From Escherichia coli (GTDB taxonomy: Bacteria > Pseudomonadota > Gammaproteobacteria > Enterobacterales > Enterobacteriaceae), in assembly GCF_009931435.1 (NCBI RefSeq), contig NZ_CP043414.1: DNA of 64,000 nucleotides; one strand, written 5' to 3'. Positions 9,740 through 63,935 of the stretch are shown piece after piece; within the stretch, counting starts at the first letter, position 1, and each line of letters opens with the position of its first letter. The notes under the pieces were generated by a model, which did not search any database, was not told where the DNA came from, and saw only the letters and a program-made list of their open reading frames with translations. A program made the position numbers and the translations under genes.

Positions 9740-12466
9740 ATGGCTACAATTCATGTAGACGGCAAAGAATACGAGGTCAACGGAGCGGACAACCTGCTGG
9801 AAGCTTGTCTGTCTCTGGGCCTTGATATTCCTTACTTTTGCTGGCATCCGGCGCTGGGAAGCGTCGGTGCTTGCCGCCAGTGTGCGGTGAAGCAATACCA
9901 AAACGCGGAAGACACGCGTGGTCGCCTGGTGATGTCCTGTATGACACCGGCTTCCGATGGCACCTTTATTTCCATTGACGACGAAGAAGCGAAACAGTTC
10001 CGTGAAAGCGTGGTCGAGTGGTTGATGACCAACCACCCGCACGATTGTCCGGTATGTGAAGAGGGCGGTAACTGCCATCTTCAGGATATGACCGTGATGA
10101 CCGGACACAGCTTCCGTCGCTACCGTTTCACCAAACGTACCCACCGCAATCAGGATCTGGGGCCGTTCATCTCTCACGAAATGAACCGTTGCATCGCCTG
10201 CTACCGCTGCGTGCGTTACTACAAAGATTACGCTGACGGTACAGATCTGGGCGTTTACGGTGCACATGACAACGTCTACTTCGGTCGCCCGGAAGACGGC
10301 ACCCTGGAAAGCGAATTCTCCGGTAACCTGGTCGAAATTTGCCCGACCGGCGTATTCACCGACAAAACGCACTCCGAGCGTTATAACCGTAAATGGGATA
10401 TGCAGTTTGCGCCGAGCATCTGCCAGCAATGTTCCATCGGCTGTAACATCAGCCCCGGCGAGCGTTATGGCGAACTGCGTCGTATCGAAAACCGTTACAA
10501 CGGTACGGTAAACCACTACTTCCTCTGCGACCGAGGTCGTTTCGGTTACGGCTACGTCAACCTGAAAGATCGTCCGCGTCAGCCAGTACAGCGTCGTGGC
10601 GATGATTTCATTACCCTCAACGCCGAGCAGGCAATGCAGGGCGCGGCAGATATTCTGCGTCAGTCGAAGAAAGTCATCGGCATCGGTTCTCCGCGTGCCA
10701 GCGTGGAAAGCAACTTTGCGCTGCGTGAGCTGGTGGGCGAAGAAAACTTCTATACCGGTATCGCTCACGGTGAGCAGGAACGTCTGCAACTGGCACTAAA
10801 AGTGCTGCGTGAAGGCGGCATTTATACTCCGGCTCTGCGCGAAATCGAATCTTATGATGCGGTACTGGTGCTGGGCGAAGACGTTACCCAGACCGGCGCG
10901 CGCGTTGCGCTGGCAGTGCGTCAGGCGGTGAAAGGTAAAGCACGCGAAATGGCGGCAGCACAGAAAGTGGCTGACTGGCAGATTGCGGCAATCCTCAACA
11001 TTGGCCAACGTGCGAAGCATCCGCTGTTTGTGACTAACGTTGATGACACCCGTCTGGATGATATCGCGGCGTGGACTTACCGCGCACCGGTTGAAGATCA
11101 GGCGCGTTTAGGTTTTGCCATTGCCCATGCTCTGGATAACTCCGCGCCAGCGGTTGACGGTATCGAGCCTGAACTGCAAAGCAAAATCGACGTCATCGTG
11201 CAGGCACTGGCAGGTGCGAAGAAACCGTTAATTATCTCCGGGACGAACGCTGGTAGCGCTGAAGTGATTCAGGCAGCGGCTAACGTGGCGAAAGCCCTGA
11301 AAGGTCGCGGCGCTGACGTCGGTATCACCATGATTGCCCGTTCCGTCAACAGCATGGGGCTGGGCATTATGGGCGGTGGATCGCTTGAAGAAGCGTTAAC
11401 CGAACTGGAAACCGGACGCGCCGACGCGGTGGTGGTGCTGGAAAACGATCTGCATCGTCACGCTTCCGCTACCCGCGTGAATGCTGCGCTGGCGAAAGCG
11501 CCGCTGGTGATGGTGGTTGACCATCAACGCACGGCGATCATGGAAAACGCCCATCTGGTGCTTTCTGCCGCCAGCTTTGCTGAAAGCGACGGTACGGTGA
11601 TCAACAATGAAGGCCGTGCCCAACGTTTCTTCCAGGTTTACGATCCGGCTTATTACGACAGCAAAACTGTGATGCTGGAAAGCTGGCGCTGGCTGCACTC
11701 GCTGCACAGCACCCTACTGAGCCGTGAAGTGGACTGGACGCAGCTCGACCATGTGATTGACGCTGTTGTGGCGAAAATCCCGGAACTGGCAGGTATCAAA
11801 GATGCTGCGCCGGATGCGACATTCCGTATTCGTGGTCAGAAACTGGCCCGTGAGCCGCACCGTTACAGTGGTCGTACCGCCATGCGCGCCAACATCAGCG
11901 TTCATGAGCCGCGTCAGCCGCAGGATATTGACACCATGTTCACCTTCTCGATGGAGGGTAACAACCAGCCGACCGCGCACCGTTCGCAAGTGCCGTTTGC
12001 CTGGGCGCCGGGCTGGAACTCCCCGCAGGCGTGGAACAAATTCCAGGACGAAGTGGGCGGCAAACTGCGCTTTGGCGATCCGGGCGTGCGTCTGTTTGAA
12101 ACCAGCGAAAACGGTCTGGATTACTTCACCAGCGTACCGGCACGCTTCCAGCCGCAGGAAGGGAAATGGCGTATCGCGCCGTACTACCACCTGTTTGGCA
12201 GCGATGAATTGTCACAGCGTGCCCCGGTCTTCCATAGCCGTATGCCGCAACCGTACATCAAACTCAACCCAGCGGATGCCGCGAAGTTGGGAGTGAACGC
12301 GGGTACACGCGTCTCCTTTAGTTACGATGGCAACACGGTCACGCTGCCGGTTGAAATCGCCGAAGGACTGACGGCAGGGCAGGTGGGCTTGCCGATGGGC
12401 ATGTCCGGTATTGCTCCGGTGCTGGCTGGCGCGCATCTTGAGGATCTCAAGGAGGCACAACAATGA
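9740..12466 (+). CDS. nuoG: NADH:quinone oxidoreductase subunit G (molybdopterin-like Fe-S subunit)
   Basis: about 908 aa; N-terminal 2Fe-2S and 4Fe-4S cysteine clusters; an ATG two codons upstream (9734) is an alternative start. Confidence 0.9.
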
Positions 12467-14862: not shown

Positions 14863-16700
14863 ACATGCTTGCCTTAACCATTATTTTGCCATTGATTGGC
14901 TTCGTCTTGCTGGCGTTCTCCCGTGGGCGCTGGTCTGAAAATGTCTCGGCGATCGTGGGCGTAGGCTCTGTGGGCCTGGCGGCGCTGGTAACCGCCTTTA
15001 TCGGCGTTGACTTCTTCGCTAACGGCGAGCAGGCATACAGCCAGCCGCTGTGGACATGGATGTCGGTAGGCGACTTTAACATCGGTTTCAATCTGGTGCT
15101 GGACGGCCTGTCGCTGACCATGCTCTCGGTGGTCACCGGTGTCGGTTTCCTTATTCACATGTACGCCTCCTGGTATATGCGTGGTGAAGAGGGCTACTCT
15201 CGCTTCTTCGCCTACACCAACCTGTTCATCGCCAGCATGGTGGTTCTGGTTCTTGCCGACAACCTGCTGCTGATGTACCTCGGCTGGGAAGGCGTGGGCC
15301 TGTGCTCCTATCTGTTGATCGGTTTCTATTACACCGATCCGAAGAATGGCGCAGCGGCAATGAAAGCGTTTGTCGTGACCCGTGTGGGTGACGTGTTCCT
15401 CGCTTTCGCGCTGTTCATTCTCTACAACGAACTGGGCACCCTGAACTTCCGTGAAATGGTGGAACTGGCACCCGCGCACTTTGCTGACGGCAATAACATG
15501 CTGATGTGGGCGACGCTGATGCTGCTGGGCGGTGCGGTTGGTAAATCTGCGCAGCTACCGTTGCAGACATGGCTTGCCGACGCGATGGCTGGCCCGACAC
15601 CTGTCTCCGCGCTGATCCACGCCGCAACGATGGTAACCGCGGGTGTCTACCTGATCGCCCGTACCCACGGCCTGTTCCTGATGACACCAGAAGTTCTGCA
15701 TCTGGTGGGTATTGTCGGGGCAGTTACGCTGCTGCTGGCCGGTTTTGCCGCGCTGGTACAGACCGACATCAAACGTGTTCTCGCTTACTCCACCATGAGC
15801 CAGATTGGCTACATGTTCCTTGCGCTTGGCGTACAGGCATGGGATGCGGCGATTTTCCACTTGATGACCCACGCGTTCTTTAAAGCGCTGCTGTTCCTGG
15901 CATCCGGTTCCGTCATTCTGGCCTGCCATCACGAACAGAACATCTTCAAGATGGGCGGTCTGCGTAAATCTATTCCGCTGGTTTATCTCTGCTTCCTGGT
16001 GGGTGGTGCAGCACTGTCGGCACTGCCGCTGGTTACTGCGGGCTTCTTCAGTAAGGATGAGATCCTCGCTGGTGCGATGGCGAATGGTCATATCAATCTG
16101 ATGGTGGCAGGTCTGGTCGGTGCGTTTATGACCTCTCTCTACACCTTCCGTATGATTTTCATCGTCTTCCACGGGAAAGAACAAATTCACGCTCACGCCG
16201 TGAAAGGGATTACTCACAGCCTGCCGCTGATTGTGCTGCTGATCCTTTCCACCTTCGTTGGCGCACTGATTGTACCGCCGCTGCAGGGCGTGCTTCCGCA
16301 AACTACGGAACTGGCGCACGGCAGCATGTTGACCCTGGAAATTACCTCTGGCGTGGTCGCGGTGGTTGGTATTCTGCTGGCAGCCTGGCTGTGGCTGGGT
16401 AAACGTACTCTGGTGACCTCCATCGCCAACAGTGCGCCGGGCCGTCTGCTGGGTACCTGGTGGTACAACGCCTGGGGCTTTGACTGGCTGTACGACAAAG
16501 TGTTCGTCAAGCCGTTCCTGGGTATTGCCTGGTTGCTGAAACGCGATCCGCTGAACTCAATGATGAACATCCCGGCTGTCCTTTCCCGCTTTGCAGGTAA
16601 AGGTCTGCTGTTAAGCGAGAACGGTTATCTGCGCTGGTATGTGGCATCCATGAGCATCGGTGCGGTCGTGGTGCTGGCACTGTTGATGGTACTGCGTTGA
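14859..16700 (+). CDS. nuoL: NADH:quinone oxidoreductase subunit L (antiporter-like)
   Basis: 613 aa Mrp-antiporter-like membrane subunit. Confidence 0.93.
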
Positions 16701-16738
16701 GTTAAGGATTGTGGGCTTGCCCCTGGGCATATAAGAAC

Positions 16739-16776
16739 GTAGGTCGGATAAGCCGCCTTCGCGGCGCATCCGACAC
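16739..16776. repeat. REP (repetitive extragenic palindrome) element in the nuoL-nuoM spacer
   Basis: gtaggtcggataagccgccttcgcggcgcatccgacac matches the enterobacterial REP consensus (imperfect palindrome). Confidence 0.6.
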
Positions 16777-16865
16777 TACAACCACAATCCGAAGAGAATT
16801 TTCTGTCGTGAGAATTCGTTGAAAATCCGGTCCTGACGGGACTTTTACAAGGAATAAAGATCGCC

Positions 16866-21641: not shown

Positions 21642-23369
21642 ATGCGAAATAAAAATATAATCATGTTGCTTATGAGTAGTTTGATTTTGTCAGGATGTGG
21701 GCCGGAACCTGAGAATAAGGAAAGTCAGCAACAACAACCCAGTACTCCAACAGAGCAGCAAGTGCTTGCCGCGCAGCAAGCTGCAATAAAAGAGGCTGAG
21801 CAAAGCGCCGCCGCCGCGAAAGTCTTGGCCCAGCAAGAAGTGCAACAATATTCAGACAAACAGGCTTTACAGGGGCGATTGCAGGAAGCGCCAACATTTG
21901 CAAGAGCGGCTAAAGCAAAAGCTACACATGTCGCAAATCCAGGAACCGCTCGCTATCAGCAGTTCGATGATAATCCGGTTAAGCAGGTAGCGCAAAATCC
22001 GTTGGCGACGTTTAGTCTTGACGTTGACACTGGCAGTTATGCGAATGTACGGCGTTTCCTCAATCAAGGGCTGTTACCTCCGCCAGACGCTGTGCGGGTG
22101 GAGGAGATAGTCAATTATTTCCCGTCTGATTGGGATATCAAAGACAAACAATCTATTCCGGCCTCTAAGCCAATACCTTTCGCTATGCGCTACGAATTGG
22201 CACCTGCGCCATGGAATGAACAGCGAACATTGCTGAAAGTTGATATCCTGGCGAAAGATCGCAAAAGTGAAGAGTTACCAGCTTCTAATCTGGTCTTTCT
22301 TATCGACACTTCTGGTTCAATGATTTCTGATGAACGTTTGCCACTTATCCAGTCTTCGTTGAAATTATTGGTCAAAGAACTTCGTGAGCAGGATAACATT
22401 GCTATCGTGACCTACGCTGGCGACTCCCGTATTGCATTGCCTTCTATCTCCGGGAGTCATAAGGCGGAAATTAATGCCGCAATTGATTCGCTGGATGCCG
22501 AAGGCAGTACCAATGGCGGTGCCGGGCTGGAACTGGCTTATCAGCAGGCGGCGAAGGGGTTTATTAAGGGCGGTATCAATCGCATTTTATTGGCCACTGA
22601 CGGTGACTTTAACGTTGGTATTGACGATCCAAAATCGATTGAATCAATGGTCAAAAAACAGCGGGAGTCCGGTGTTACTCTGTCGACGTTTGGCGTGGGG
22701 GATGACAATTACAACGAGGCAATGATGGTGCGAATTGCCGATGTTGGCAACGGTAACTACAGCTACATTGATACCCTCTCTGAAGCGCAGAAAGTATTGA
22801 ACAGTGAAATGCGGCAGACGTTGATTACCGTAGCAAAAGATGTCAAAGCGCAAATTGAGTTTAACCCCGCGTGGGTAACGGAATACCGTCAGATTGGTTA
22901 TGAAAAGCGCCAACTTCGGGCGGAAGATTTTAATAACGACAACGTTGATGCGGGGGATATTGGCGCAGGCAAACATATAACGTTGTTATTTGAATTAACG
23001 CTGAACGGGCAAAAAGCATCAATTGATAAGTTACGCTATGCCCCGGATAACAAATCAGCGAAATCGGACAAAACGAAAGAACTGGCCTGGTTAAAAATTC
23101 GCTGGAAATACCCGCAGGGAAAAGAAAGTCAGTTAGTTGAATTCCCGCTGGGGCCAATAATAAACGCGCCCTCTGAAGATATGCGTTTTCGCGCAGCAGT
23201 AGCTGCATATGGGCAAAAGTTACGCGGTTCTGAATACCTGGACGAAATCTCATGGCAGCAGATAAAACAGTGGGCTCAGCAGGCAAAAGGGGAAGATCCA
23301 CAGGGTTACAGGGCGGAATTTATTCGCCTGGTTGAACTGGCGGATGGGGTGACTGGCATCAGTCCGTGA
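21642..23369 (+). CDS. yfbK: von Willebrand factor type A (vWA) domain lipoprotein YfbK
   Basis: 575 aa; lipobox LILSGC at the N-terminus; vWA MIDAS motif DTSGSM; AAGGA RBS upstream. Confidence 0.85.
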   Translation: MRNKNIIMLLMSSLILSGCGPEPENKESQQQQPSTPTEQQVLAAQQAAIKEAEQSAAAAKVLAQQEVQQYSDKQALQGRLQEAPTFARAAKAKATHVANPGTARYQQFDDNPVKQVAQNPLATFSLDVDTGSYANVRRFLNQGLLPPPDAVRVEEIVNYFPSDWDIKDKQSIPASKPIPFAMRYELAPAPWNEQRTLLKVDILAKDRKSEELPASNLVFLIDTSGSMISDERLPLIQSSLKLLVKELREQDNIAIVTYAGDSRIALPSISGSHKAEINAAIDSLDAEGSTNGGAGLELAYQQAAKGFIKGGINRILLATDGDFNVGIDDPKSIESMVKKQRESGVTLSTFGVGDDNYNEAMMVRIADVGNGNYSYIDTLSEAQKVLNSEMRQTLITVAKDVKAQIEFNPAWVTEYRQIGYEKRQLRAEDFNNDNVDAGDIGAGKHITLLFELTLNGQKASIDKLRYAPDNKSAKSDKTKELAWLKIRWKYPQGKESQLVEFPLGPIINAPSEDMRFRAAVAAYGQKLRGSEYLDEISWQQIKQWAQQAKGEDPQGYRAEFIRLVELADGVTGISP

Positions 23370-23395
23370 TGACTTTTTAGCAAACTATGTTCGAT

Positions 23396-23417
23396 CAGTC
23401 AGCATATTTGCTGACTG
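23396..23417. terminator. Hairpin between convergent yfbK and elaD (possible bidirectional terminator)
   Basis: Inverted repeat cagtcagca / tgctgactg with a 4-nt loop. Confidence 0.45.
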
Positions 23418-23439
23418 GTCGAATTGACTAACAATGATG

Positions 23440-24654
23440 TTAACTTACTCTTTTGCCTGATGCTCTATTTTGGGGTTGTGAGTGTTTTATTTCTAAGTCT
23501 CTATAATAATCATTGATATTTGCATCGCCATATTTATCTAAATAACAATTTCTGTTTACCTGTCGATGTTGAAAATCAATTTCGTACTGCTCTTCTGCTG
23601 AATATTTTTTAAATCTGTCAGCATAGTTTTTTAATAACGTATAGGGAGCGCTGTCAGAATTGCTTTCCCTTTGTTCAATTACTTCTTTGGCTGCCATGCA
23701 CACAAATGCACCGCAACTTTGGCTTAAGTATTGCTGAAGATCGGCATGTAAAAATGTTATCTCTTGTTCAGTTAAATGATCTGTTATATTCTTATTATTC
23801 GGCATTTCCCCCATGAATTTAGAATTGAAACTATTAATGACACGCTTAAGTGAATTTTCTTTATCATGGCCTAGTGCACGTAATGAGTTGAATATGACGC
23901 ATTTTATTTGTTGTGTGTTATTTTTTTCATTAACTATTTTTTGTAGCGAAACTAATATCCAGTGTCCGCCAGTATTTATGGGGAATAACTGGACTTCTTT
24001 CGGCCATGATGGATCGCTCTTAATATTATCATTGAGAGCGATTTCCAGGTAAGTGCTGTTGGAATCGGGGAGGTAGAGACCAGTAGGATAATTGACTTGA
24101 GTATTTTTTGCATTAGCGGCGATCTTCTGAAGATAGCAATCTATTTCATCCGTGGTTAATTGACGATTTTTATCCCAGAAGTTTGTACCATCGCTCAGTT
24201 CATTATTCTTATCATTTAAAAGTACCTTTGAAAGCGACTGTTTTTCTGATATGAGAGGAATGTCCTCACCGATAATTGTCATTAATTTCGAAGGGGAGAA
24301 TAGTTTTTTGAACAGGAGATTATCTGAATTATGTGATTTGAGGGGGTGTTTGGTTGCGGTATGTGCCAAATTATATAATTTTAAACAGGCATTTTTTATA
24401 AGCTTGATAATCGATAGGGTATCATTTGTTGGGTTTCTAACAATATGGTAAAGAATATCTTCAGCTTTTTTTCCAAATTCATCATAACCTAACGCAATAT
24501 TATGCAGTAACTCAATGCTTTCTTCATCTCCGGATAACGCTGTTTTTTTTAAAGACTGCAGTAATTCCTCGGTCACAGTAAATTTTTCTGCAAATGTCTG
24601 ACAGAGTTGGGTTTGAGATAATTGACAATAATTGCTGACAACTGTAACCATCAT
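23440..24654 (-). CDS. elaD: ElaD, CE-clan cysteine protease with deubiquitinase activity
   Basis: 404 aa ORF in a markedly AT-rich stretch; recognised as E. coli ElaD (..[16 protein letters not shown].. catalytic His region). Confidence 0.85.
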
Positions 24655-31404: not shown

Positions 31405-32366
31405 TGCGTAGCGCGCAGGTATACCGCTGGCAGATCCCCATGGACGCGGGGGTGGTTCTGCGCGACAGGCGGTTAAAAACCCGCGACGGGCTATACGTTT
31501 GCCTGCGCGAGGGCGAGCGCGAAGGGTGGGGAGAGATCTCCCCACTGCCGGGCTTCAGTCAGGAAACCTGGGAAGAGGCGCAAAGTGCGCTGCTTGCCTG
31601 GGTAAATAACTGGCTGGCAGGCGATTGCGAATTACCGCAAATGCCTTCCGTCGCCTTTGGCGTAAGCTGTGCATTGGCTGAGCTGGCAGACACGTTACCA
31701 CAGGCGGCAAATTTCCGTGCTGCACCGTTGTGTAATGGTGATCCTGACGATCTGATCCTCAAACTTGCCGATATGCCAGGCGAGAAAGTGGCGAAGGTCA
31801 AAGTGGGATTGTACGAAGCGGTGCGCGACGGCATGGTGGTGAATCTGTTGCTGGAGGCCATTCCGGATCTGCATTTGCGTCTTGACGCGAATCGCGCCTG
31901 GACACCGCTGAAAGGCCAGCAGTTTGCCAAATACGTTAACCCGGATTATCGCCACCGCATCGCGTTTCTCGAAGAACCGTGCAAAACCCGCGAGGATTCC
32001 CGCGCCTTTGCCCGTGAAACGGGTATTGCCATTGCCTGGGATGAAAGCCTGCGTGAGCCGGATTTTGCCTTTGTGGCGGAAGAAGGCGTGCGAGCGGTGG
32101 TGATCAAACCCACGCTCACGGGCAGCCTGGAGAAAGTGCGCGAGCAGGTGCAGGCGGCGCACGTGCTGGGGCTGACGGCGGTGATCAGTTCATCTATTGA
32201 GTCGAGCTTAGGCTTAACGCAACTGGCGCGGATTGCCGCCTGGTTAACGCCAGACACTATCCCGGGGCTGGACACGCTGGATCTGATGCAGGCGCAGCAG
32301 GTTCGTCGCTGGCCGGGTAGCACGCTGCCTTTTGTCGACGTTGATGCACTGGAGCGGTTGTTATGA
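31404..32366 (+). CDS. menC: o-succinylbenzoate synthase MenC (enolase superfamily)
   Basis: 320 aa; start overlaps the menB stop by 1 nt. Confidence 0.9.
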
Positions 32367-34809: not shown

Positions 34810-36458
34810 TTGGGCCGATACTGAATCAGCACCAGACGCTCCTGACGATCGATGGCATCTGCGGGCGGAATGGCGAGACTGTTGATATCTTCATCGCGGT
34901 CAACCGAAAGCACGAGTGTAATAACCCCCTCCTGACGATGTTGATTAAGCCAGTTTGCGAACTCATCACCGCTGACAAATCTCCCTTTCGCATCCGGATA
35001 ATTTAGGCCGTATTTCAATTCCCCTGTCTGGCGATACATGATGATGTCATCACGTCTCAGGCTCCATGCCAGACCAGCAGCAACGCCGACGCTATCGGTA
35101 AGAATATAGCGGCTTGGCTGCAGTGATTCTTGTGTCGTCTCGACAAAAAATTGCGGATGTTTTCCTTCCATGACTCTGTCAGGAATTGAAAATCCTACCA
35201 GCAACGCCAGCCCAAGCGGGCAAAGTGCGGCAAAAGGCCAGTTTTTTTCGACGTTTGTTAAGGTATACCAGCCGAAAAATGCCCATAGCGAAAAAATCGA
35301 CCATGCACAGAAGACTTTATAGCTCTCGAAGGTTTGCCACACCGGCGTGCTCATAGGTCCCCAGGGGGAGACCACAAACGTAGCAATAATGCCAGTGACG
35401 CCAAAAGCGATGTTAATCCAGCCATTAATCCGCAACGCCAGAGGATTATTTTTTGCTGCCAGCAAAGCGTAATGCGCCATCAGCATTGCCAGAGGTGCAA
35501 AGCAGGAAAGAATATAGGTGGGCAATTTGCCTTTGGCAACGGAGAAAAACAGCAGCGGCATTACCGCCCAGCTCAATAAATAGACGGTTGCGGAATGCTT
35601 GCGGTTTTTCCAGCCTGTGTACAGTGCTCCGGGGAGTAATCCCAGCCACGGCAGGCTACCGGCAATGATGACCGGCAAGTAGTACCAGAACGGAGCTCTA
35701 TGCTGGGCATCATCCAGTGCAAAGCGTTGAATATGCTCAACCCAGAAAAAATAGTGCCAGAAGTCAGGCTCCCGCTGCGCTATCGCCAGTCCCCAGGGGA
35801 GAACCGTCAGTACGCAACTGATAACCGCCAGCCAGCCGTAAATAAAGAGATCTTTCCAGCGTTTTTGCGTTGCAACCCATGGCAGCACGCTTAATACCGG
35901 CACGGCAAGGGCGAGAAAACCTTTGGTCATCACCCCCATGCCGCAGGTGATTCCCAGCAGTAAAAATCCCGCGCTTTTGCCTTTCCACGTCTGTGCCTGC
36001 ATTGCCAGCCAGAAGCTGCACATTCCCGCCACCAGCCAGAATGCAATAAACGGATCGAGCACGGCATAAGTGCCAATGGCATAGACAATAAACAGTGAGA
36101 GATAAATCACTGCGGCGAGTAGAGCCAGACGTTTATCGCGCCATAAGCGCAGGGTAAACCAGGTCACCAGCGCGGCAGTTAACAGGGTCGCAAAGATAAC
36201 GCCTGCCCGCACACCAAAGTTATTTGCGCCAAATAGCCATTGCCCAATACTGTTAATCCAGTATCCGGCAATGGGTTTTTCGAAATAACGTAGCCCTAAC
36301 ATATGGGGCACAATCCAGTCGCCGGATGCCAGCATTTCCCGACTGATTTCCGCATAACGCGTTTCATCTGGTTGCCAGAGCAGACGCGTGCTGATCGGTA
36401 ACAGGTAATAGCAGGCAATAAACGCGAAGAGGCCGATAAGGTAACGTACCGATTTCAT
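34806..36458 (-). CDS. arnT: Lipid A 4-amino-4-deoxy-L-arabinose transferase ArnT
   Basis: 550 aa polytopic glycosyltransferase family 83 protein. Confidence 0.9.
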
Positions 36459-56161: not shown

Positions 56162-57238
56162 ATGAAATTGACGCTGAAAAACCTTAGCATGGCGATCATG
56201 ATGAGTGGAATGATCATGGGAAGCAGTGCAATGGCGGCGGATAGCAACGAAAAAATAGTCATCGCCCATCGCGGTGCCAGTGGATATTTACCGGAGCATA
56301 CGCTGCCAGCAAAAGCGATGGCGTATGCGCAGGGGGCAGATTATCTGGAACAGGATTTGGTGATGACCAAAGACGACCATCTGGTTGTTCTGCATGACCA
56401 TTATCTCGATCGTGTTACTGATGTCGCCGATCGTTTCCCGGACAGGGCGCGTAAAGATGGCCGTTACTACGCGATAGATTTTACGCTGGATGAAATTAAG
56501 TCGCTGAAATTTACCGAAGGTTTCGATATTGAAAACGGTAAAAAAGTGCAGACTTATCCGGGGCGTTTCCCGATGGGTAAGTCTGACTTCCGGGTGCACA
56601 CCTTTGAAGAAGAGATTGAATTTGTTCAGGGGTTAAATCACTCTACCGGGAAAAATATCGGTATCTATCCAGAAATTAAAGCGCCGTGGTTCCATCATCA
56701 GGAAGGGAAGGATATTGCGGCAAAAACGCTGGAAGTGCTGAAGAAATATGGTTACACCGGCAAGGACGACAAAGTTTATTTGCAATGTTTTGATGTTGAT
56801 GAACTGAAGCGCATTAAAAATGAGCTGGAACCCAAAATGGGCATGGACCTCAATCTGGTACAGTTGATTGCCTATACCGACTGGAATGAAACGCAGCAGA
56901 AACAGCCGGACGGAAGCTGGGTTAATTACAGCTATGACTGGATGTTCAAGCCGGGCGCTATGAAACAGGTAGCGGAATATGCTGATGGCATTGGTCCGGA
57001 TTACCATATGGTGATTGAGGAGACATCGCAGCCGGGTAATATCAAGCTTACCGGAATGGTAAAAGATGCACAGCAGAATAAGCTGGTGGTGCATCCTTAT
57101 ACCGTGCGGGTCGACAAGCTGCCGGAATATGCCACCGATGTGAATCAGTTGTATGATGCTCTGTATAACAAAGCGGGTGTAAATGGGCTGTTTACTGATT
57201 TCCCTGATAAGGCAGTAAAATTCCTTAATAAAGAGTAA
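56162..57238 (+). CDS. glpQ: Periplasmic glycerophosphodiester phosphodiesterase GlpQ
   Basis: 358 aa from MKLTLKNLSMAIMMSGMIMGSSAMA (signal peptide); HRGASGYLPEHT catalytic motif. Confidence 0.92.
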   Translation: MKLTLKNLSMAIMMSGMIMGSSAMAADSNEKIVIAHRGASGYLPEHTLPAKAMAYAQGADYLEQDLVMTKDDHLVVLHDHYLDRVTDVADRFPDRARKDGRYYAIDFTLDEIKSLKFTEGFDIENGKKVQTYPGRFPMGKSDFRVHTFEEEIEFVQGLNHSTGKNIGIYPEIKAPWFHHQEGKDIAAKTLEVLKKYGYTGKDDKVYLQCFDVDELKRIKNELEPKMGMDLNLVQLIAYTDWNETQQKQPDGSWVNYSYDWMFKPGAMKQVAEYADGIGPDYHMVIEETSQPGNIKLTGMVKDAQQNKLVVHPYTVRVDKLPEYATDVNQLYDALYNKAGVNGLFTDFPDKAVKFLNKE

Positions 57239-57245
57239 TGCTACT

Positions 57246-57274
57246 GCAGGATGGCGTTTATGCGCCATCCTCTG
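57246..57274 (+). terminator. Hairpin just downstream of glpQ
   Basis: ggatggcg / cgccatcc stem with a 6-nt loop, 8 nt after the glpQ stop; no strong T-run. Confidence 0.45.
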
Positions 57275-57457
57275 CTAAAGCGAAATAATGCTACTACCGG
57301 TTATTCTTTTCATTAACGGGTGCATCCTGTAAAAAGATGCCAACATAATTTTCGTAAAACTCATTCGTTAAAAAAGCTAACACTGTGCATTGTTATTCTT
57401 TAAACAGTATGAATAGGTCTCAATAATAAATTGTAATGCAGTTTATACTGTAAAGTA

Positions 57458-58528
57458 TTATTCGAATTTCGGAAAGGTAAAGAAAATATTAATGTATCTT
57501 ATTAATTTATCATATTGTTCTTGGGTGAATGCTGTTTGCACACCTTCAGGGCAATATTTACCAGTAATAACCAGTTGCCCATTGCTGTGTTGTACCATTA
57601 AACCTTCTTTTTCCTTTGGATCTACAAAATTAGAATTATCAAATGTGAAGATATTTTTTTCCTGTTTTGAGTAAGTAAAGAAATCTCGTGTATAGCTGAA
57701 ACTATCATTTATTAATGGTGCTAACTTTTTGTCGGCGATATCGATAAGCTCACCACTTAATTTATTGATGTATTTAATTTGCTTCAATTTTTTCTGCGCT
57801 TGCACAATTTGCTTGTAGGTGTTTTCAATTTTTTTAGAAGAATTCTTAAATACATCATAGCGTTCCTCGGAGGATGTGTATTTGTACCATTCTGTATTTT
57901 TCTCAGAATGTTGTAGCAGGTCTGTATATTTTTTTTGATCGCTGTAAAGTTGACTTTTAATACTTTCCTCACTGCTGATCTTATAATGTTTATCAGAGTT
58001 GTTTGTTTTTGAAATGTCCTTTTCTGTCAGTGTCTGGTCCGTGTTGTGGGTATTTTCTTTTGCAACATGCTCATTGATGATGTTAATTGCAGTTTCATAT
58101 TCATTTAAATTTATTGTTCTTTGTGAAAGAAACCCTTCTTTGCTTTCGATACTCAAAACACCTTCGTTGTTTTCACCTCTGGTAAAGGTAAGGATATAGG
58201 GTTCATAATCTTCTGCAAATTCATTTTTATACGTTATGACATGCTCGACAAAATGTCTTATTGGTACGAAACCATAACTGTGAACGTCAATTTTTTTGGT
58301 CTTGACACTATCAATTTCATCTGAGGCTTTCGTGAAAAAAGCCAATAAATTAGCTATGTTGTCTGCTGAGGTTGATAACCCGAATCTACTTTGAGATATT
58401 TTTAGAAACTCATTGCAAAAAATCTCAAGTTTCGCGGTTTGTTGTGATTCTTTGTAAATTTCTGCTGTTTGCAATTTATTATTTTGTAAAATATTACAGC
58501 GAGATAAGTGAATAGATGTATTTGGCAT
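57458..58528 (-). CDS. Orphan hypothetical protein of about 356 aa, no family recognised; AT-rich, foreign-looking
   Basis: Long uninterrupted ORF in a very AT-rich block; ATG at 58528 preceded by AAGGA at good spacing (the track start at 58564 is a TTG); Lys/Glu/Ser/Asn-rich, no TM segment, no motif I can place. Confidence 0.6.
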   Translation of the reverse strand: MPNTSIHLSRCNILQNNKLQTAEIYKESQQTAKLEIFCNEFLKISQSRFGLSTSADNIANLLAFFTKASDEIDSVKTKKIDVHSYGFVPIRHFVEHVITYKNEFAEDYEPYILTFTRGENNEGVLSIESKEGFLSQRTINLNEYETAINIINEHVAKENTHNTDQTLTEKDISKTNNSDKHYKISSEESIKSQLYSDQKKYTDLLQHSEKNTEWYKYTSSEERYDVFKNSSKKIENTYKQIVQAQKKLKQIKYINKLSGELIDIADKKLAPLINDSFSYTRDFFTYSKQEKNIFTFDNSNFVDPKEKEGLMVQHSNGQLVITGKYCPEGVQTAFTQEQYDKLIRYINIFFTFPKFE

Positions 58529-58993
58529 AAATGATTCCTTGTAGTGTGAGTTAACAAGATACAATTTAATCTTTGCAGAATATATTCACTATCAAATTTA
58601 GCTCATTTTATTACGAAGACCTTTACGCATGTTAGAAAGTATCATTATTGTTAATAAATACGGTAATAAGTAACAAACAGATATTGATAACTTCCCTGAC
58701 AAGTTATTAGGTATCCCACTTGAAGATTGAGAATGGCTCCAGAGTAGACTGTGTACTGTTCGCCGGAGTGTCATTACTCTCAACAATCGGTTTTGACAGT
58801 GAGTCGGGCGCTTCATACCGGTTTCTACCTGGAGTCATTGTCACTTCCCTAATCTGGATAAATATTTATCGCTAATTCACAAAGTGGACCAAAATCAGGT
58901 GAAAACGAATTATTACGCATGGTAAAGACTACAGGCCAACTAAGTGTGGCGAATCAGACAATCTTACATTTGTCATCAATCTCATGTCTCACA

Positions 58994-59212
58994 TCAAATT
59001 TTTCCACTCACCACGAGTTGTTCCGTACACGTTTGTAGTAAAAACAGTGGACTGCCTTCTACCGGCTTTTCTTTAGCCAACAACGAAATCTGTCGATAGA
59101 AGGTTGGTTCGTGAGGAACGGAACACAATTCACCTGCAATGGTTTTCAGCGTTAACTCTGGTAATAAGGCGATGCCTAATCCCTGTCGAATAAAATTCAT
59201 CGCTGTATCCAT
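58994..59212 (-). pseudogene. yfaH: C-terminal fragment of a LysR-type regulator (yfaH-like remnant)
   Basis: 72 aa ORF resembling only the C-terminal effector-domain end of LysR proteins (GLGIALLPELTLK...); no HTH-encoding region upstream. Confidence 0.5.
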
Positions 59213-59415
59213 CTGATTAAATTCACATTTTATTTGCTGGGCGCACTATTAGTGGTAGTGGCTGGTGGAGTCTATGCGCTGCAAATGAAGGGTAAAAGCG
59301 GTGTCGCGCTAGTAGTGGCAAAAGAAATTCATTAATACGACACGTTTCATTAAGATTTTTCGCAGGTAACCACCTATAGTCATTGTCGTTAATAAAAAAT
59401 GACAGGCGATAGGGT

Positions 59416-60066
59416 ATGGCAGTTTCAGCAAAGCACGATGAATTTAATCACTGGTGGGCAACAGAGGGCGACTGGGTTGAAGAGCCTAACTATCGCCGTA
59501 ATGGTATGAGCGGGGTGCAATGCGTCGAGCGCAACGGCAAAAAGCTGTATGTGAAGCGCATGACGCATCATCTGTTTCATTCCGTACGTTATCCGTTCGG
59601 TCGACCGACGATTGTCCGTGAGGTTGCGGTAATTAAAGAGCTGGAACGGGCTGGTGTCATTGTGCCGAAAATCGTTTTTGGTGAAGCGGTGAAAATTGAG
59701 GGTGAATGGCGCGCGTTGCTGGTGACGGAAGATATGGCGGGGTTCATAAGTATTGCTGACTGGTATGCCCAGCATGCAGTAACACCTTATTCTGACGATG
59801 TTCGGCAAGCCATGTTGAAAGCTGTGGCGATGGCGTTTAAGAAAATGCATAGCGTTAATCGTCAGCATGGCTGTTGTTACGTTCGCCACATCTATGTGAA
59901 AACAGAAGGTATGGTAGAAGCTGGTTTTCTTGATCTGGAGAAAAGTCGTCGCCGCTTACGTCGGCATAAAGCGATTAATCATGATTTCCGCCAGCTGGAA
60001 AAATATCTGGAGCCGATCCCTAAAGCGGACTGGGAGCAGGTTAAAGCGTATTACTACGCCATGTAA
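59416..60066 (+). CDS. inaA: Acid-inducible Kdo/WaaP-family kinase-like protein InaA
   Basis: 216 aa ORF with ATG start; recognised as InaA. Confidence 0.88.
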   Translation: MAVSAKHDEFNHWWATEGDWVEEPNYRRNGMSGVQCVERNGKKLYVKRMTHHLFHSVRYPFGRPTIVREVAVIKELERAGVIVPKIVFGEAVKIEGEWRALLVTEDMAGFISIADWYAQHAVTPYSDDVRQAMLKAVAMAFKKMHSVNRQHGCCYVRHIYVKTEGMVEAGFLDLEKSRRRLRRHKAINHDFRQLEKYLEPIPKADWEQVKAYYYAM

Positions 60067-60373: not shown

Positions 60374-61503
60374 CAGAGCTGGAAGTTACTTAAATCGTCG
60401 GTGTCCACTTCCGAGTCAATCTGCCCGACCAGATAAGAACTCACTTCCACTTCCTGCGGAGCAACCTGTACGTTATCAGACACCAGCCAGGTGTTGATCC
60501 ACGGGATCGGGTTGGAGCGTGTCTGGAACGGCAGATCCAAACCGACCGCCTGCATACGGATATTGGTGATGTATTCAACGTACTGGCAGAGAATGTCTTT
60601 ATTCAGACCAATCATCGAACCGTCACGGAACAGATAATCCGCCCAGTCTTTCTCTTGCTGTGCCGCCTGGACAAACAGGTCATAGCACTCCTGCTTACAC
60701 TCTTCGGCAATTTCTGCCATTTCCGGATCATCCGCACCGCTGCGCAGCAGATTCAGCATATGCTGCGTACCGGTCAGGTGCAGGGCTTCATCGCGGGCAA
60801 TCAGGCGAATAATCTTGGCGTTACCTTCCATCAGTTCGCGTTCTGCAAAGGCAAAGGAACAAGCAAAGCTGACGTAGAAGCGAATGGCTTCCAGTGCGTT
60901 AACGCTCATCAGGCAGAGATACAGTTTTTTCTTCAGCTCACGTAGGCTAACGGTCACGGTTTTACCGTTGACGGTGTGGGTGCCTTCGCCCAGCAGGTGC
61001 CAGTAGCTGGTCATTTCGATCAGTTCATCGTAATAGCTGGAGATCCCTTCCGCACGTTTCTGGATCTGCTCGTTGGTGACGATATCGTCAAACACAACAG
61101 ACGGATCGTTAACGATATTACGAATGATATGAGTATAGGAACGGGAATGAATTGTTTCTGAGAATGCCCAGGTTTCTACCCAGGTTTCCAGTTCCGGGAT
61201 CGAGATCAGCGGCAGCAGTGCCACGTTCGGGCTGCGACCCTGAATGGAGTCCAGCAACGTCTGATATTTCAGGTTGCTGATAAATATGTGTTTTTCGTGT
61301 TCAGGCAGTGCCTGGTAATCGATACGGTCACGAGAAACGTCAACTTCTTCCGGACGCCAGAAGAAAGAGAGCTGCTTTTCGATCAGCTTTTCGAAGATGT
61401 CATATTTTTGCTGATCGTAGCGAGCCACGTTGACCGGCTGACCAAAGAACATCGGTTCTTTGAGCTGATCATTTTTCGTCTGAGAAAAGGTGGTATATGC
61501 CAT
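60373..61503 (-). CDS. nrdB: Class Ia ribonucleotide reductase beta subunit NrdB
   Basis: 376 aa from [17 protein letters not shown]; the track ORF extends 48 codons upstream into the REP region. Confidence 0.93.
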
Positions 61504-61528
61504 GAATGTGTCCTGTTGGGAGTTTAAT

Positions 61529-61640
61529 GCCGGATAAGGCATTTTACGCCGCATCCTGTGCCTGATGCGACGCTGGCGCGTCTTATCAGGCCTACAAATT
61601 CGAGCCGTAGGCCGGATAAGGCATTTACGCCGCATCCGGC
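61529..61640. repeat. BIME: cluster of three REP elements in the nrdA-nrdB spacer
   Basis: Three REP-consensus copies in alternating orientation (gccggataaggcattttacgccgcatcc; gcctgatgcgacgctggcgcgtcttatcaggcctac; gtaggccggataaggcatttacgccgcatccggc). Confidence 0.7.
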
Positions 61641-61649
61641 ATCTCAATA

Positions 61650-63935
61650 TCAGATTTTACATGCGCCGCTTTCGCAGCCATCGTCCTGGATTGACGGCAC
61701 CAGATCGTCTTGTGCGTCTTCAGCACCGTCACGGGTGTTCTGATAATACAGCGTTTTGACCCCGAATTTGTAGGCGGTGAGCAGGTCTTTCAGCAACTGC
61801 TGCATCGGCACTTTTCCTGACGGGAAGCGTGATGGATCGTAGTTGGTGTTAGCAGAGATCGACTGATCGATAAATTTCTGCATGATACCCACCAGTTGCA
61901 GGTAGCCATCGTTACCCGGCATTTCCCACAGCAGCTCATAGGCGTCGTGCAGATGCTCGTAGTCCGGCACCACCTGGCGCAGAATACCGTCTTTCGACGC
62001 TTTGATGCTGACGTAACCACGCGGCGGTTCAATACCGTTAGTAGCGTTAGAGATCTGCGAAGAAGTCTCTGACGGCATCAGAGCAGAAAGCGTGGAGTTA
62101 CGCAGGCCGTGCGTTTTGATTGACTCACGCAGTGCTTCCCAGTCGTAATGCAGCGGCTCATTAGCGATGGCATCCAGATCTTTCTTATAGGTATCGATCG
62201 GCAGGATCCCTTTCGCGTAAGTGGTTTCGTTAAACCACGGGCACGCGCCTTGCTCTTTCGCCAGCTCATTAGAGGCTTTCAGCAGGTAATACTGAATAGC
62301 TTCGAAGGTTTTATGCGTCAGGTTGTTGGCGCTGCCGTCGGAGTAGCGTTTACCGTGCTTCGCCAGGTAGTAAGCGAAGTTGATCACACCAATACCCAGC
62401 GTACGACGACCCATCGCTCCACGTTTGGCGGCCGGGATCGGGTAATCCTGATAATCCAGCAGCGCGTCGAGTGCGCGTACTGCCAGAATCGCCAGCTCTT
62501 CCAGTTCATCCAGGCTATTAATTGCGCCCAGGTTGAAAGCAGACAGCGTACACAGCGCGATTTCACCGTTCTCGTCGTTGACATCATTCAGCGGTTTGGT
62601 CGGCAGGGCGATTTCCAGGCACAGGTTAGACTGGCGCACTGGCGCGATGGCCGGATCAAACGGGCTATGGGTATTGCAGTGGTCAACGTTCTGAATATAG
62701 ATACGACCGGTAGACGCACGTTCCTGCATCATCAGCGAGAACAGCTCAACGGCTTTCACACGCTGCTTGCGGATGCTGTCGTCTTTCTCATATTTGGTGT
62801 ACAGGCGTTCAAACTCTTCCTGATCGGCGAAGAACGCGTCGTACAGCCCCGGTACGTCGGACGGGCTGAACAGGGTGATATCTTCACCTTTCAGCAGACG
62901 GGTATACATCAGTTTGTTGATTTGTACCCCGTAGTCCATATGACGCACGCGGTTGCCTTCAACCCCACGGTTGTTTTTCAACACCAGCAGGCTTTCCACT
63001 TCCAGATGCCACATAGGGTAGAACAGTGTTGCCGCACCGCCGCGCACACCGCCCTGAGAGCAGGATTTCACTGCCGTCTGGAAATGTTTGTAGAACGGAA
63101 TACAACCGGTGTGGAATGCTTCGCCACCGCGAATCGGGCTACCCAGCGCACGAATACGCCCGGCGTTAATGCCGATCCCGGCACGCTGGGAAACGTATTT
63201 AACAATCGCGCTGGAGGTGGCGTTGATGGAATCCAGGCTGTCGCCGCACTCGATCAGTACGCAGGAGCTGAACTGACGAGTCGGGGTACGCACGCCGGAC
63301 ATGATTGGCGTCGGCAGCGAAATTTTAAATGTGGAAACCGCGTCGTAAAAACGCTTCACGTATTGCAGGCGCGTTTCACGCGGGTAGTTCGAGAACAGGC
63401 ACGCAGCAACCAGAATATAGAGGAACTGGGCGCTCTCATAGATTTCGCCGGTCACGCGGTTCTGTACCAGATATTTGCCTTCCAGCTGCTTAACGGCAGC
63501 ATAAGAGAAGGTCATATCACGGTCGTGATCGATAAACGTGTCCATCTGCTTGAACTCTTCTTCCGTGTAGTCTTCCAGCAGATGATTATCGTATTTGCCC
63601 ATCTCGACCATTTTCACCACGTGGTCGTACAGCGCAGGCGGCTCAAACTGGCCATAGGCTTTTTTACGCAGGTGGAAAATTGCCAGGCGCGCGGCGAGAT
63701 ACTGATAATCCGGCGCATCACGGGAGATCAGGTCTGCGGCAGCCTTGATAATGGTTTCGTGGATGTCAGAGGTCTTGATACCGTCATAAAACTGAATGTG
63801 GGAGCGCAGCTCGACCTGGGAAATCGAAACGTTATGCAGTCCTTCTGCCGCCCAATCCAGAACGCGATGGATTTTGTCGAGATTGATGCGCTCTGTGCTA
63901 CCGTCGCGCTTTGTCACCAGCAGATTCTGATTCAT
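61650..63935 (-). CDS. nrdA: Class Ia ribonucleotide reductase alpha subunit NrdA
   Basis: 761 aa from [26 protein letters not shown] (ATP-cone), C-terminal redox-active cysteine pair. Confidence 0.93.

Follow-up and report, generated by a model that had tools for sequence, protein, structure and literature searches.

What is the non-coding stretch that separates an orphan gene from a fragment of yfaH in this E. coli chromosome, and where does the GC-richer patch inside it come from? A preliminary description of the window, i.e. the whole 64-kb stretch of DNA that was analysed, had offered a promoter region, a structured RNA or the remnant of a gene. We find that the region is real but ordinary, and the gene remnant is the one of these options with direct support. 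The features needed to follow the argument are these:

57272-58979 (approximate limits), no strand: AT-rich accessory islet of ~1.7 kb, bounded by the glpQ terminator hairpin and the yfaH/Z3495 (LysR) stop codon
57458-58528, minus strand: orphan gene Z3496/ECs3123, hypothetical protein of 356 aa (ORF and RefSeq annotation)
58529-58721, minus strand: AT-rich leader (28.5% GC) directly upstream of the orphan ATG, with the Shine-Dalgarno sequence AAGGAA at 58540-58535
58598-58816, minus strand: 72-aa ORF, the longest of the region, no support as a gene
58707-58838, minus strand: 43-aa ORF (MTPGRNRYEAPDS...) inside the palindrome, called by some gene finders
58722-58848, no strand: imperfect palindrome (the GC patch), 127 bp, two arms of ~60 nt, outer stem 58722-58751 pairing with 58821-58848, ctccag/ctggag as core
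58837-58956, plus strand: by homology, relic of an inaA-type gene (lipopolysaccharide kinase InaA), last ~27 codons (HFPNLDKYLSLIHKVDQNQVKTNYYAW*), TAA at 58923-58925, decayed REP-like 3' flank
58994-59212, minus strand: C-terminal fragment of yfaH (LysR regulator, Z3495 in O157), the right-hand boundary of the region

The limits of the region had to be moved. The preliminary description let it begin at 58565 and counted 430 bp. In RefSeq the orphan starts not at the TTG at 58564 but at ATG 58528, and AAGGAA lies six bases ahead of this ATG. This leaves an untranslated gap of 465 bp, 58529-58993. The gene order is glpT, glpQ (plus strand), the orphan ORF (minus), the yfaH fragment (minus), inaA, yfaE and nrdB. 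The region is therefore not only upstream of the orphan, it also immediately follows the stop codon of the yfaH/LysR gene, which is on the minus strand like the orphan. As glpQ is Z3497/ECs3124, the orphan is Z3496/ECs3123. In O157 the LysR gene Z3495 is intact at 292 aa and is found at the same place together with the MFS transporter gene Z3494. These two genes are O-island 97 of O157:H7, and the region lies between O-island 97 and glpQ. It corresponds to 3,077,685-3,078,147 in Sakai (NC_002695.2), with the palindrome at about 3,077,829-3,077,954, and to 3,165,869-3,166,331 in EDL933. A published study (PMC10819331) describes Z3495 as a functional virulence regulator of O157.

The region is the right-hand third of the islet, which has a GC content of 0.32, compared with 0.512 for the 64-kb window. 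Besides the orphan gene, the islet holds the AT-rich leader, the palindrome, the inaA-type relic and the 43-aa and 72-aa ORFs, while the yfaH fragment is outside it. A clean empty site is present in K-12, E. whittamii and Escherichia sp. E1V33, where the islet is absent and the glpQ terminator (...gcgccatcct) runs straight into gtctca... around the LysR stop codon. This junction sets the limits of the islet at about 57272-58979. Kluyvera and Pseudocitrobacter also lack the islet, and there glpA and glpB come after the orthologous LysR gene. A small accessory islet beside O-island 97 in EHEC thus now has exact limits.

Among 5426 complete E. coli genomes, the 429-bp stretch first described is found in 1050, always as a single copy, only in the chromosome and with 90-99% identity. 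The orphan coding sequence is found in 1052, so the two travel together. Homologues of the orphan protein were found in E. coli only. It has no Pfam domain and no PADLOC match, and the search against PHROGs gave one match at E = 0.05. The AlphaFold2 model of the protein has a mean pLDDT of 43.7, too poor for a fold search. No mention of Z3496 or ECs3123 was found in the paper texts searched. The islet is in decay: many strains carry an orphan that is annotated as frameshifted or interrupted by IS1, and in strain XJ5.2 an IS1 sits in the palindrome as well.

The leader, 58529-58721, is presumed to be the promoter and 5'-UTR region of the orphan, as the orphan promoter would have to be located there. 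A sigma-70 consensus scan of the orphan's (minus) strand gave no match, and the promoter region of the preliminary description is kept here only in this presumed form. As a side observation, 465 bp separate the virulence regulator gene Z3495 from the orphan, which follows it on the same strand, and no terminator was found between them. Co-transcription of the two genes is for this reason possible and worth a glance.

The GC patch is as the preliminary description had it. The GC content is 0.496 at 58730-58850, a value like that of the core genome, against 0.285 in the left flank (58565-58729) and 0.364 in the right flank (58851-58993), and no other 121-bp window of the islet is as GC-rich as the one that starts at 58729. 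The motifs said to bracket the patch are also there, CTCCAG at 58737-58742 and CTGGAG at 58829-58834. An inverted pair of 6-mers is trivial alone. Here, it forms the core of a 15-nt inverted repeat (58728-58742 and 58829-58843, 87% complementary), and this repeat is part of an imperfect palindrome that covers the patch. When the reverse complement of 58715-58785 is aligned with 58786-58860 the score is 35, while the shuffled sequences have a mean of 15.6 and a maximum of 31 (0 of 1000 shuffles reach the observed score). The alignment extends weakly to 58705-58783 and 58793-58864, i.e. with gaps and for ~16 nt into the inaA-type relic.

Folded as RNA, 58720-58860 is predicted to form one long hairpin, with -50.8 kcal/mol and z = -3.97 on the plus strand and -42.0 kcal/mol and z = -3.50 on the minus strand. 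None of 200 shuffles reaches the observed energy on either strand, i.e. the comparison with shuffled controls that had been proposed as a check is significant for both. The patch folded as DNA has z = -2.92. When the whole 64 kb is scanned in 141-nt windows as a background, the best window that overlaps the patch obtains a GC-corrected z of -2.6 and ranks about 30th, counted from the most negative, among 5110 window-strands. The folding of the patch is unusual but not unique in the window.

Several known origins were considered for the patch and dropped. For an origin from glpQ, a blastx match of 58744-58833 to GlpQ residues 105-134 obtains 21.9 bits, hardly more than the 21.6 of the best shuffle. 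The tail of E. whittamii glpQ shares an identical 14-mer, with E = 0.33, and an nhmmer profile of the glpQ tail and its terminator finds nothing in the islet. An attC site of an integron, a retron msr/msd and a type I or III toxin-antitoxin system were dropped as well, judged against the architectures of these systems. Core-site motifs are missing from the ends of the arms, and neither a reverse-transcriptase motif nor tandem repeats are present. There is also no hydrophobic toxin paired with an antitoxin known to Rfam, and PADLOC gave no match.

The sequence that adjoins the right edge of the palindrome, and slightly overlaps the GC patch, gives a clearer answer. The resemblance of 58843-58944 to the 3' end of inaA was first seen in a translated comparison with related loci. 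In frame, the relic reads HFPNLDKYLSLIHKVDQNQVKTNYYAW, with the peptide tail …QLDKYISPIHKVGQNQVKTNYYAW, and residues 190-216 of InaA read DFRQLEKYLEPIPKADWEQVKAYYYAM. The TAA at 58923-58925 aligns with the inaA stop codon, and the homology carries on into the REP-like flank, to 58956-58961. A DNA profile of six inaA genes searched with nhmmer matches 58837-58956 of the window allele with E = 3.4e-11 and the C1 and M11957 alleles with E = 2e-13, at model positions 563-699 of 728. The alleles other than that of the window are thus closer to inaA, which makes them the more ancestral forms. With blastx the relic obtains 29.3 bits, and the maximum of 300 dinucleotide shuffles is 21.2 (0 of 300 reach it). 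In a scan of 18,950 NCBIfam models the sole match is the InaA equivalog NF007383, positions 190-215 of 216, with E = 0.039. This is far below the curated cutoff, which a fragment of 27 codons would not be expected to reach. Finally, blastn finds 68-71% ungapped identity over 76-102 nt. These four independent lines (nhmmer, blastx with shuffles, the NCBIfam scan and blastn) agree. At the level of sequence homology they demonstrate that 58837-58956 comes from a second inaA-type gene, of which the decayed 3' end, the stop codon and the REP-like flank are left.

The window contains its own inaA, 0.5 kb away and in the same orientation as the relic. A Smith-Waterman comparison of the two obtains a score of 64 (shuffle mean 23.5, sd 3.3), and with a lower gap penalty the score is 73 and the alignment reaches 58961. 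With each of the inaA tails tested the relic has an identity of 63-67%, lower than the 80-98% among real inaA tails, so it is either old or fast-decaying. It may stem from an ancient duplicate or from a foreign copy. It keeps only ~13% of the gene and is a fragment, not an intact coding sequence of full length. When a chimeric 47-aa peptide was searched against the protein database, all matches were E. coli InaA fragments, and Pfam gave no match to the translations of the three plus-strand frames. No inaA homology was found to the left of ~58837. It stops at ~58837-58843, inside the outer end of the right arm of the palindrome. The body of the palindrome was also tried as inaA-derived sequence, and neither free nor colinear alignments are better than those of shuffles or decoy segments. 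The remnant of the preliminary description is thus present at 58837-58956, abutting the patch, and is not shown for the body of the patch itself.

We therefore favour, with a probability of roughly 0.6, a reading of the region as pseudogene and rearrangement debris with no dedicated function, plus the presumed promoter region of the orphan. From the orphan ATG outward the region would be a fossil mosaic of an AT-rich leader, a palindrome and a decayed inaA-type 3' end. The position of the palindrome at the truncated 5' edge of the relic suggests that it may be the scar of the rearrangement that destroyed the gene. It could be an inverted duplication that formed by fold-back where the inaA-type gene was broken off, as hinted by the weak extension of the alignment into the relic. 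It could also be what remains of a palindromic insertion, as hinted by the flanking repeats TCCCA(A)CT and ACTTCCCT and opposed by the finding of no other copy. Under either origin the higher GC of the patch would reflect its source, not selection for an RNA or a protein, and any effect of the hairpin on minus-strand transcripts (read-through from yfaH/Z3495 or the orphan leader) would be incidental.

The insertion can be stated more specifically, as a MITE-like non-autonomous element of ~126 bp with terminal inverted repeats of ~25 bp, inserted in an inaA-type pseudogene. The arms do resemble terminal inverted repeats (58722-58746 and 58826-58847), and the inaA homology ends at the right arm. 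In O157-type alleles there are imperfect direct repeats, TCCCACTT on the left and TCCCAACT on the right, as well as ACTTCCCT at 58690 and 58843. However, these flanking repeats are short, imperfect and offset, and a continuation of inaA to the left of the putative insertion was not found. The copy number is also against a mobile element. Even at blastn sensitivity the palindrome has one copy per genome, always at this locus, in ~1050 genomes, with no second copy in the 5426 E. coli genomes and none in the phage collection. The plasmid collection gave a single match, in an E. coli record of 4.9 Mb, evidently a chromosome. The viral contigs hold no relatives, the scan giving one unrelated perfect palindrome. 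Among the metagenome matches listed (at least 120 loci), the similarity went further than the search pattern only at the E. coli locus itself. We consider a MITE-like remnant unlikely.

The 72-aa minus-strand ORF (58598-58816) exists as described, and the doubt that the preliminary description cast on it was justified: it is shortened to 38 aa in TW10509. None of the three small ORFs searched, the 43-aa and 72-aa ORFs among them, matches a family in Pfam, PADLOC or PHROGs. The 43-aa ORF (minus strand, 58838-58707) has more in its favour as a real small-protein gene. It is intact in 12 of 12 alleles, with a GGAG 8 nt upstream of the ATG in most of them, gene finders call it on contigs of metagenomes and assemblies, and RefSeq annotates it in one O157 record as WP_001301743.1. 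On the other side, PGAP omits it in almost all genomes, the allele differences are four non-synonymous and two synonymous, and an IS1 breaks the ORF in XJ5.2. It is also not among the 465 translated intergenic ORFs found by ribosome profiling in Sakai, which covered LB and BHI only (PMC5597208, S2 table). In that table the neighbouring translated ORFs are at 3,066,056 and 3,133,048, with none listed between. The 43-aa ORF is probably not a gene, a coding function for it being highly improbable, and we flag WP_001301743.1 as a likely false gene.

The debris reading also has to be weighed against a function of the hairpin as RNA. A scan of 57000-60000 with cmscan and Rfam 15 (E <= 10) gave only a spurious snoRNA match, E = 6.9, outside the patch, so the covariance search that had been proposed matched no family. 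No terminator-like sites were found on either strand of 57200-59500, and no T run follows the hairpin on either strand. Four promoter-like sites were found, against eight expected from shuffles. An independent small regulatory RNA, encoded in the patch on either strand, would agree with the significantly stable fold of both strands and with a promoter-like site on the plus strand at 58838-58866. Against it are the missing Rfam family, terminator and covariation (see below) and the promoter-like sites, which are fewer than the shuffled expectation. In addition, no ncRNA is annotated under the region among the genomes listed, where the sole annotated feature is the 43-aa hypothetical protein of one record, and no mention of the region was found in the EHEC sRNA literature and supplements searched. 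Such an RNA is very unlikely.

The diversity of the alleles bears on a second RNA reading. Among 8 alleles (~4 haplotypes) pi is 0.017-0.018 in the palindrome and leader (0.018 in 58529-58721), 0.030 in the orphan coding sequence, 0.052 in the relic and 0.057 in the left non-coding part. The palindrome and leader are thus the least variable part of the islet, but pi varies from 0.010 to 0.068 between 100-bp windows of the islet. The low diversity could mean constraint, weak evidence given this spread and the ~4 haplotypes. More diverged alleles were sought, including in cryptic clade I, and all are at least 94.6% identical (TW10509 97.6%). Across the alleles, whose diversity of at most 5% is too small for these counts to be conclusive, 42 of the 45 predicted pairs are invariant, none has a compensatory change, one has a one-sided change that keeps the pair and two are broken. 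The structured RNA proposed earlier keeps its better-than-shuffled fold, and has no Rfam match, covariation or terminator.

In this second RNA reading the hairpin is a cis-acting element of minus-strand transcripts, either as a structured leader that controls how well the orphan mRNA is translated or how stable it is, or as an element in the 3' UTR of the yfaH/Z3495 mRNA (a stabiliser, a processing site or an insulator). The stop codon of yfaH/Z3495 is 145 nt upstream of the hairpin, and since no terminator was found between the LysR stop codon and the orphan, read-through transcripts of this virulence regulator would include it, with the stable minus-strand fold given above. The outer stem is kept in 8 of 8 alleles and the diversity there is low. 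However, two of the three substitutions at paired positions break pairs, and the hairpin is unchanged where yfaH is only a fragment or the orphan is frameshifted, so that its conservation tracks neither gene. The hairpin is ~190 nt from the ribosome-binding site of the orphan and does not sequester it. In XJ5.2 an IS1 interrupts the left arm at 58729-58737, with a 9-bp duplication, and in strain 2-101 an IS1 and a deletion remove most of the region. A cis-acting role is doubtful. A stronger form, that the hairpin is a selected RNA element travelling with the islet, either as a 3'-UTR-derived or processed RNA of yfaH/Z3495 or as a leader gating Z3496/ECs3123, would explain why the palindrome and leader vary least in a decaying islet, and is quite unlikely.

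The debris reading mainly closes the lead, as the patch would be explained by its origin in gene and rearrangement debris and not by a hidden RNA or protein gene. Several known systems resemble parts of the region. The palindrome would fit long structured 5' leaders and 3'-UTR hairpins of horizontally acquired genes in its stable hairpin and in its position, between the stop codon of a regulator and the next start on the same strand. It differs from these in having neither covariation nor a link to the ribosome-binding site. REP/BIME, ERIC/IRU (~127 bp), RSA, box C and MITE families share with it the size, the imperfect-palindrome form, the intergenic site and the long hairpin. REP, ERIC, RSA, box C and MITE families are multi-copy by definition, while the palindrome is single in each genome, restricted to this locus and without relatives in the other collections. 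Quasi-palindromes and inverted duplications made at DNA breakpoints by fold-back priming or template switching are similar in that the long imperfect palindrome lies right at the edge where the gene relic is cut off. In such a duplication one arm should be original sequence, and the inner right arm is not shown to be derived from inaA.

The closest comparison is that of the relic with inaA itself (NF007383; Pfam PF06293, Kdo/WaaP family). The two share the last ~27 codons, the position of the stop codon, the REP-like flank and the orientation. The relic differs in the small part of the gene that it retains, in its identity of 63-67%, compared with 80-84% for inaA between genera, and in its location in an AT-rich islet and not at the inaA locus. 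The tail of an inaA-type gene in the islet is a clue to a chromosomal origin, not to a phage or a plasmid. The relic is best compared with a pseudogene fragment, like the neighbouring fragment of yfaH.

At the left end of the islet, the AT-rich accessory segment between the glpQ terminator and the yfaH stop codon, the glpQ stop-codon region is present as a direct repeat (TAATGCTACTGCAGG and TAATGCTACTACCGG, 57236-57250 and 57286-57300, spacing 50 bp). The second copy is followed by a small hairpin of its own and then by CATCCTGT, which is similar to the empty-site junction. Judged from this repeat, the islet could originate from a glpQ-adjacent locus, but the repeat is anecdotal because a glpQ-tail nhmmer profile gave no significant match. 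On either side of the palindrome, a GC-normal patch of 127 bp, we also found ACTTCCCT (58690-58703 and 58843-58850), the copies lying 153 bp apart in a shared reading frame. The left copy lengthens to a 14-mer, ACTTCCCTGACAAG, which E. whittamii and E1V33 share without mismatch at the 3' end of glpQ (E = 0.33). The frame after it reads DNFPDKLLGIPLED before a stop codon whose offset equals that of the stop after the GlpQ tail TDFPDKAVKFLNKE. This likeness to the glpQ tail may be due to chance.

The palindrome adjoins the inaA relic, a decayed inaA-type 3' end, and a promoter-like site is found at their junction, directed to the yfaH 3' end and antisense to yfaH:

58838-58866, + strand, promoter-like site: TTGTCA, 17-nt spacer, AATATT (consensus match only)

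Promoter-like sites are fewer in the region than the shuffled expectation. In O157-type alleles (L002 3150-3360, equivalent to 58720-58925 in the window), a 2-bp deletion joins a + strand ORF, starting with TTG at 58720, in frame to the relic. The resulting ORF of 67 aa, with the InaA-like tail SPIHKVGQNQVKTNYYAW at its end, is probably meaningless, and gene finders may call ORFs of this kind.

When the 64-kb window was scanned, the following windows had a GC-corrected folding energy more negative than that of the palindrome patch:

~31476-31666, + strand, lower GC-corrected energy than the patch
~61501-61691, - strand, lower GC-corrected energy than the patch
~9751-9891, + strand, lower GC-corrected energy than the patch
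~23301-23516, + strand, lower GC-corrected energy than the patch
~16651-16841, + strand, lower GC-corrected energy than the patch
~36151-36341, - strand, lower GC-corrected energy than the patch

The E. coli-restricted orphan protein Z3496/ECs3123 (356 aa), encoded at 57458-58528, has no family match, and its AlphaFold2 model has a mean pLDDT of 43.7. Its alleles are 87-91% identical in protein and mostly 90-95% in DNA, while the upstream region of the gene is less variable among them. The gene is frequently annotated as frameshifted or IS1-interrupted, and IS1A is found inside the CDS in several ST-related genomes. Strain XJ5.2 (L004 2233-3000) carries an IS1 within the left arm of the palindrome, where it has duplicated 9 bp of its target (window 58729-58737). 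In strain 2-101 (L003 2288-2985) the orphan and the intergenic region have been largely lost to an IS1 and an adjacent deletion. The islet seems to be a target for IS1.

The locus is also present in a 3.5-kb contig labelled 'MAG: Collinsella sp.' (JAIJJM010000334.1), with 99% identity for the LysR gene and ~95% for the islet. Almost certainly, the contig is E. coli DNA that has contaminated the Collinsella bin.

In O157:H7 and many other strains the yfaH LysR gene and the MFS transporter gene are both whole; this intact pair is O-island 97, whose LysR gene Z3495 is reported to be a virulence regulator (PMC10819331). In the window strain, the K-12-type internal deletion (58994-59415, compare L002 3428-5648) has left a yfaH fragment of 72 C-terminal aa fused to a C-terminal part of the transporter gene. 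Strains with this deletion include both carriers of the islet (the window strain, cq9 and TW10509 of cryptic clade I) and K-12, which lacks the islet; this distribution implies recombination or independent loss.
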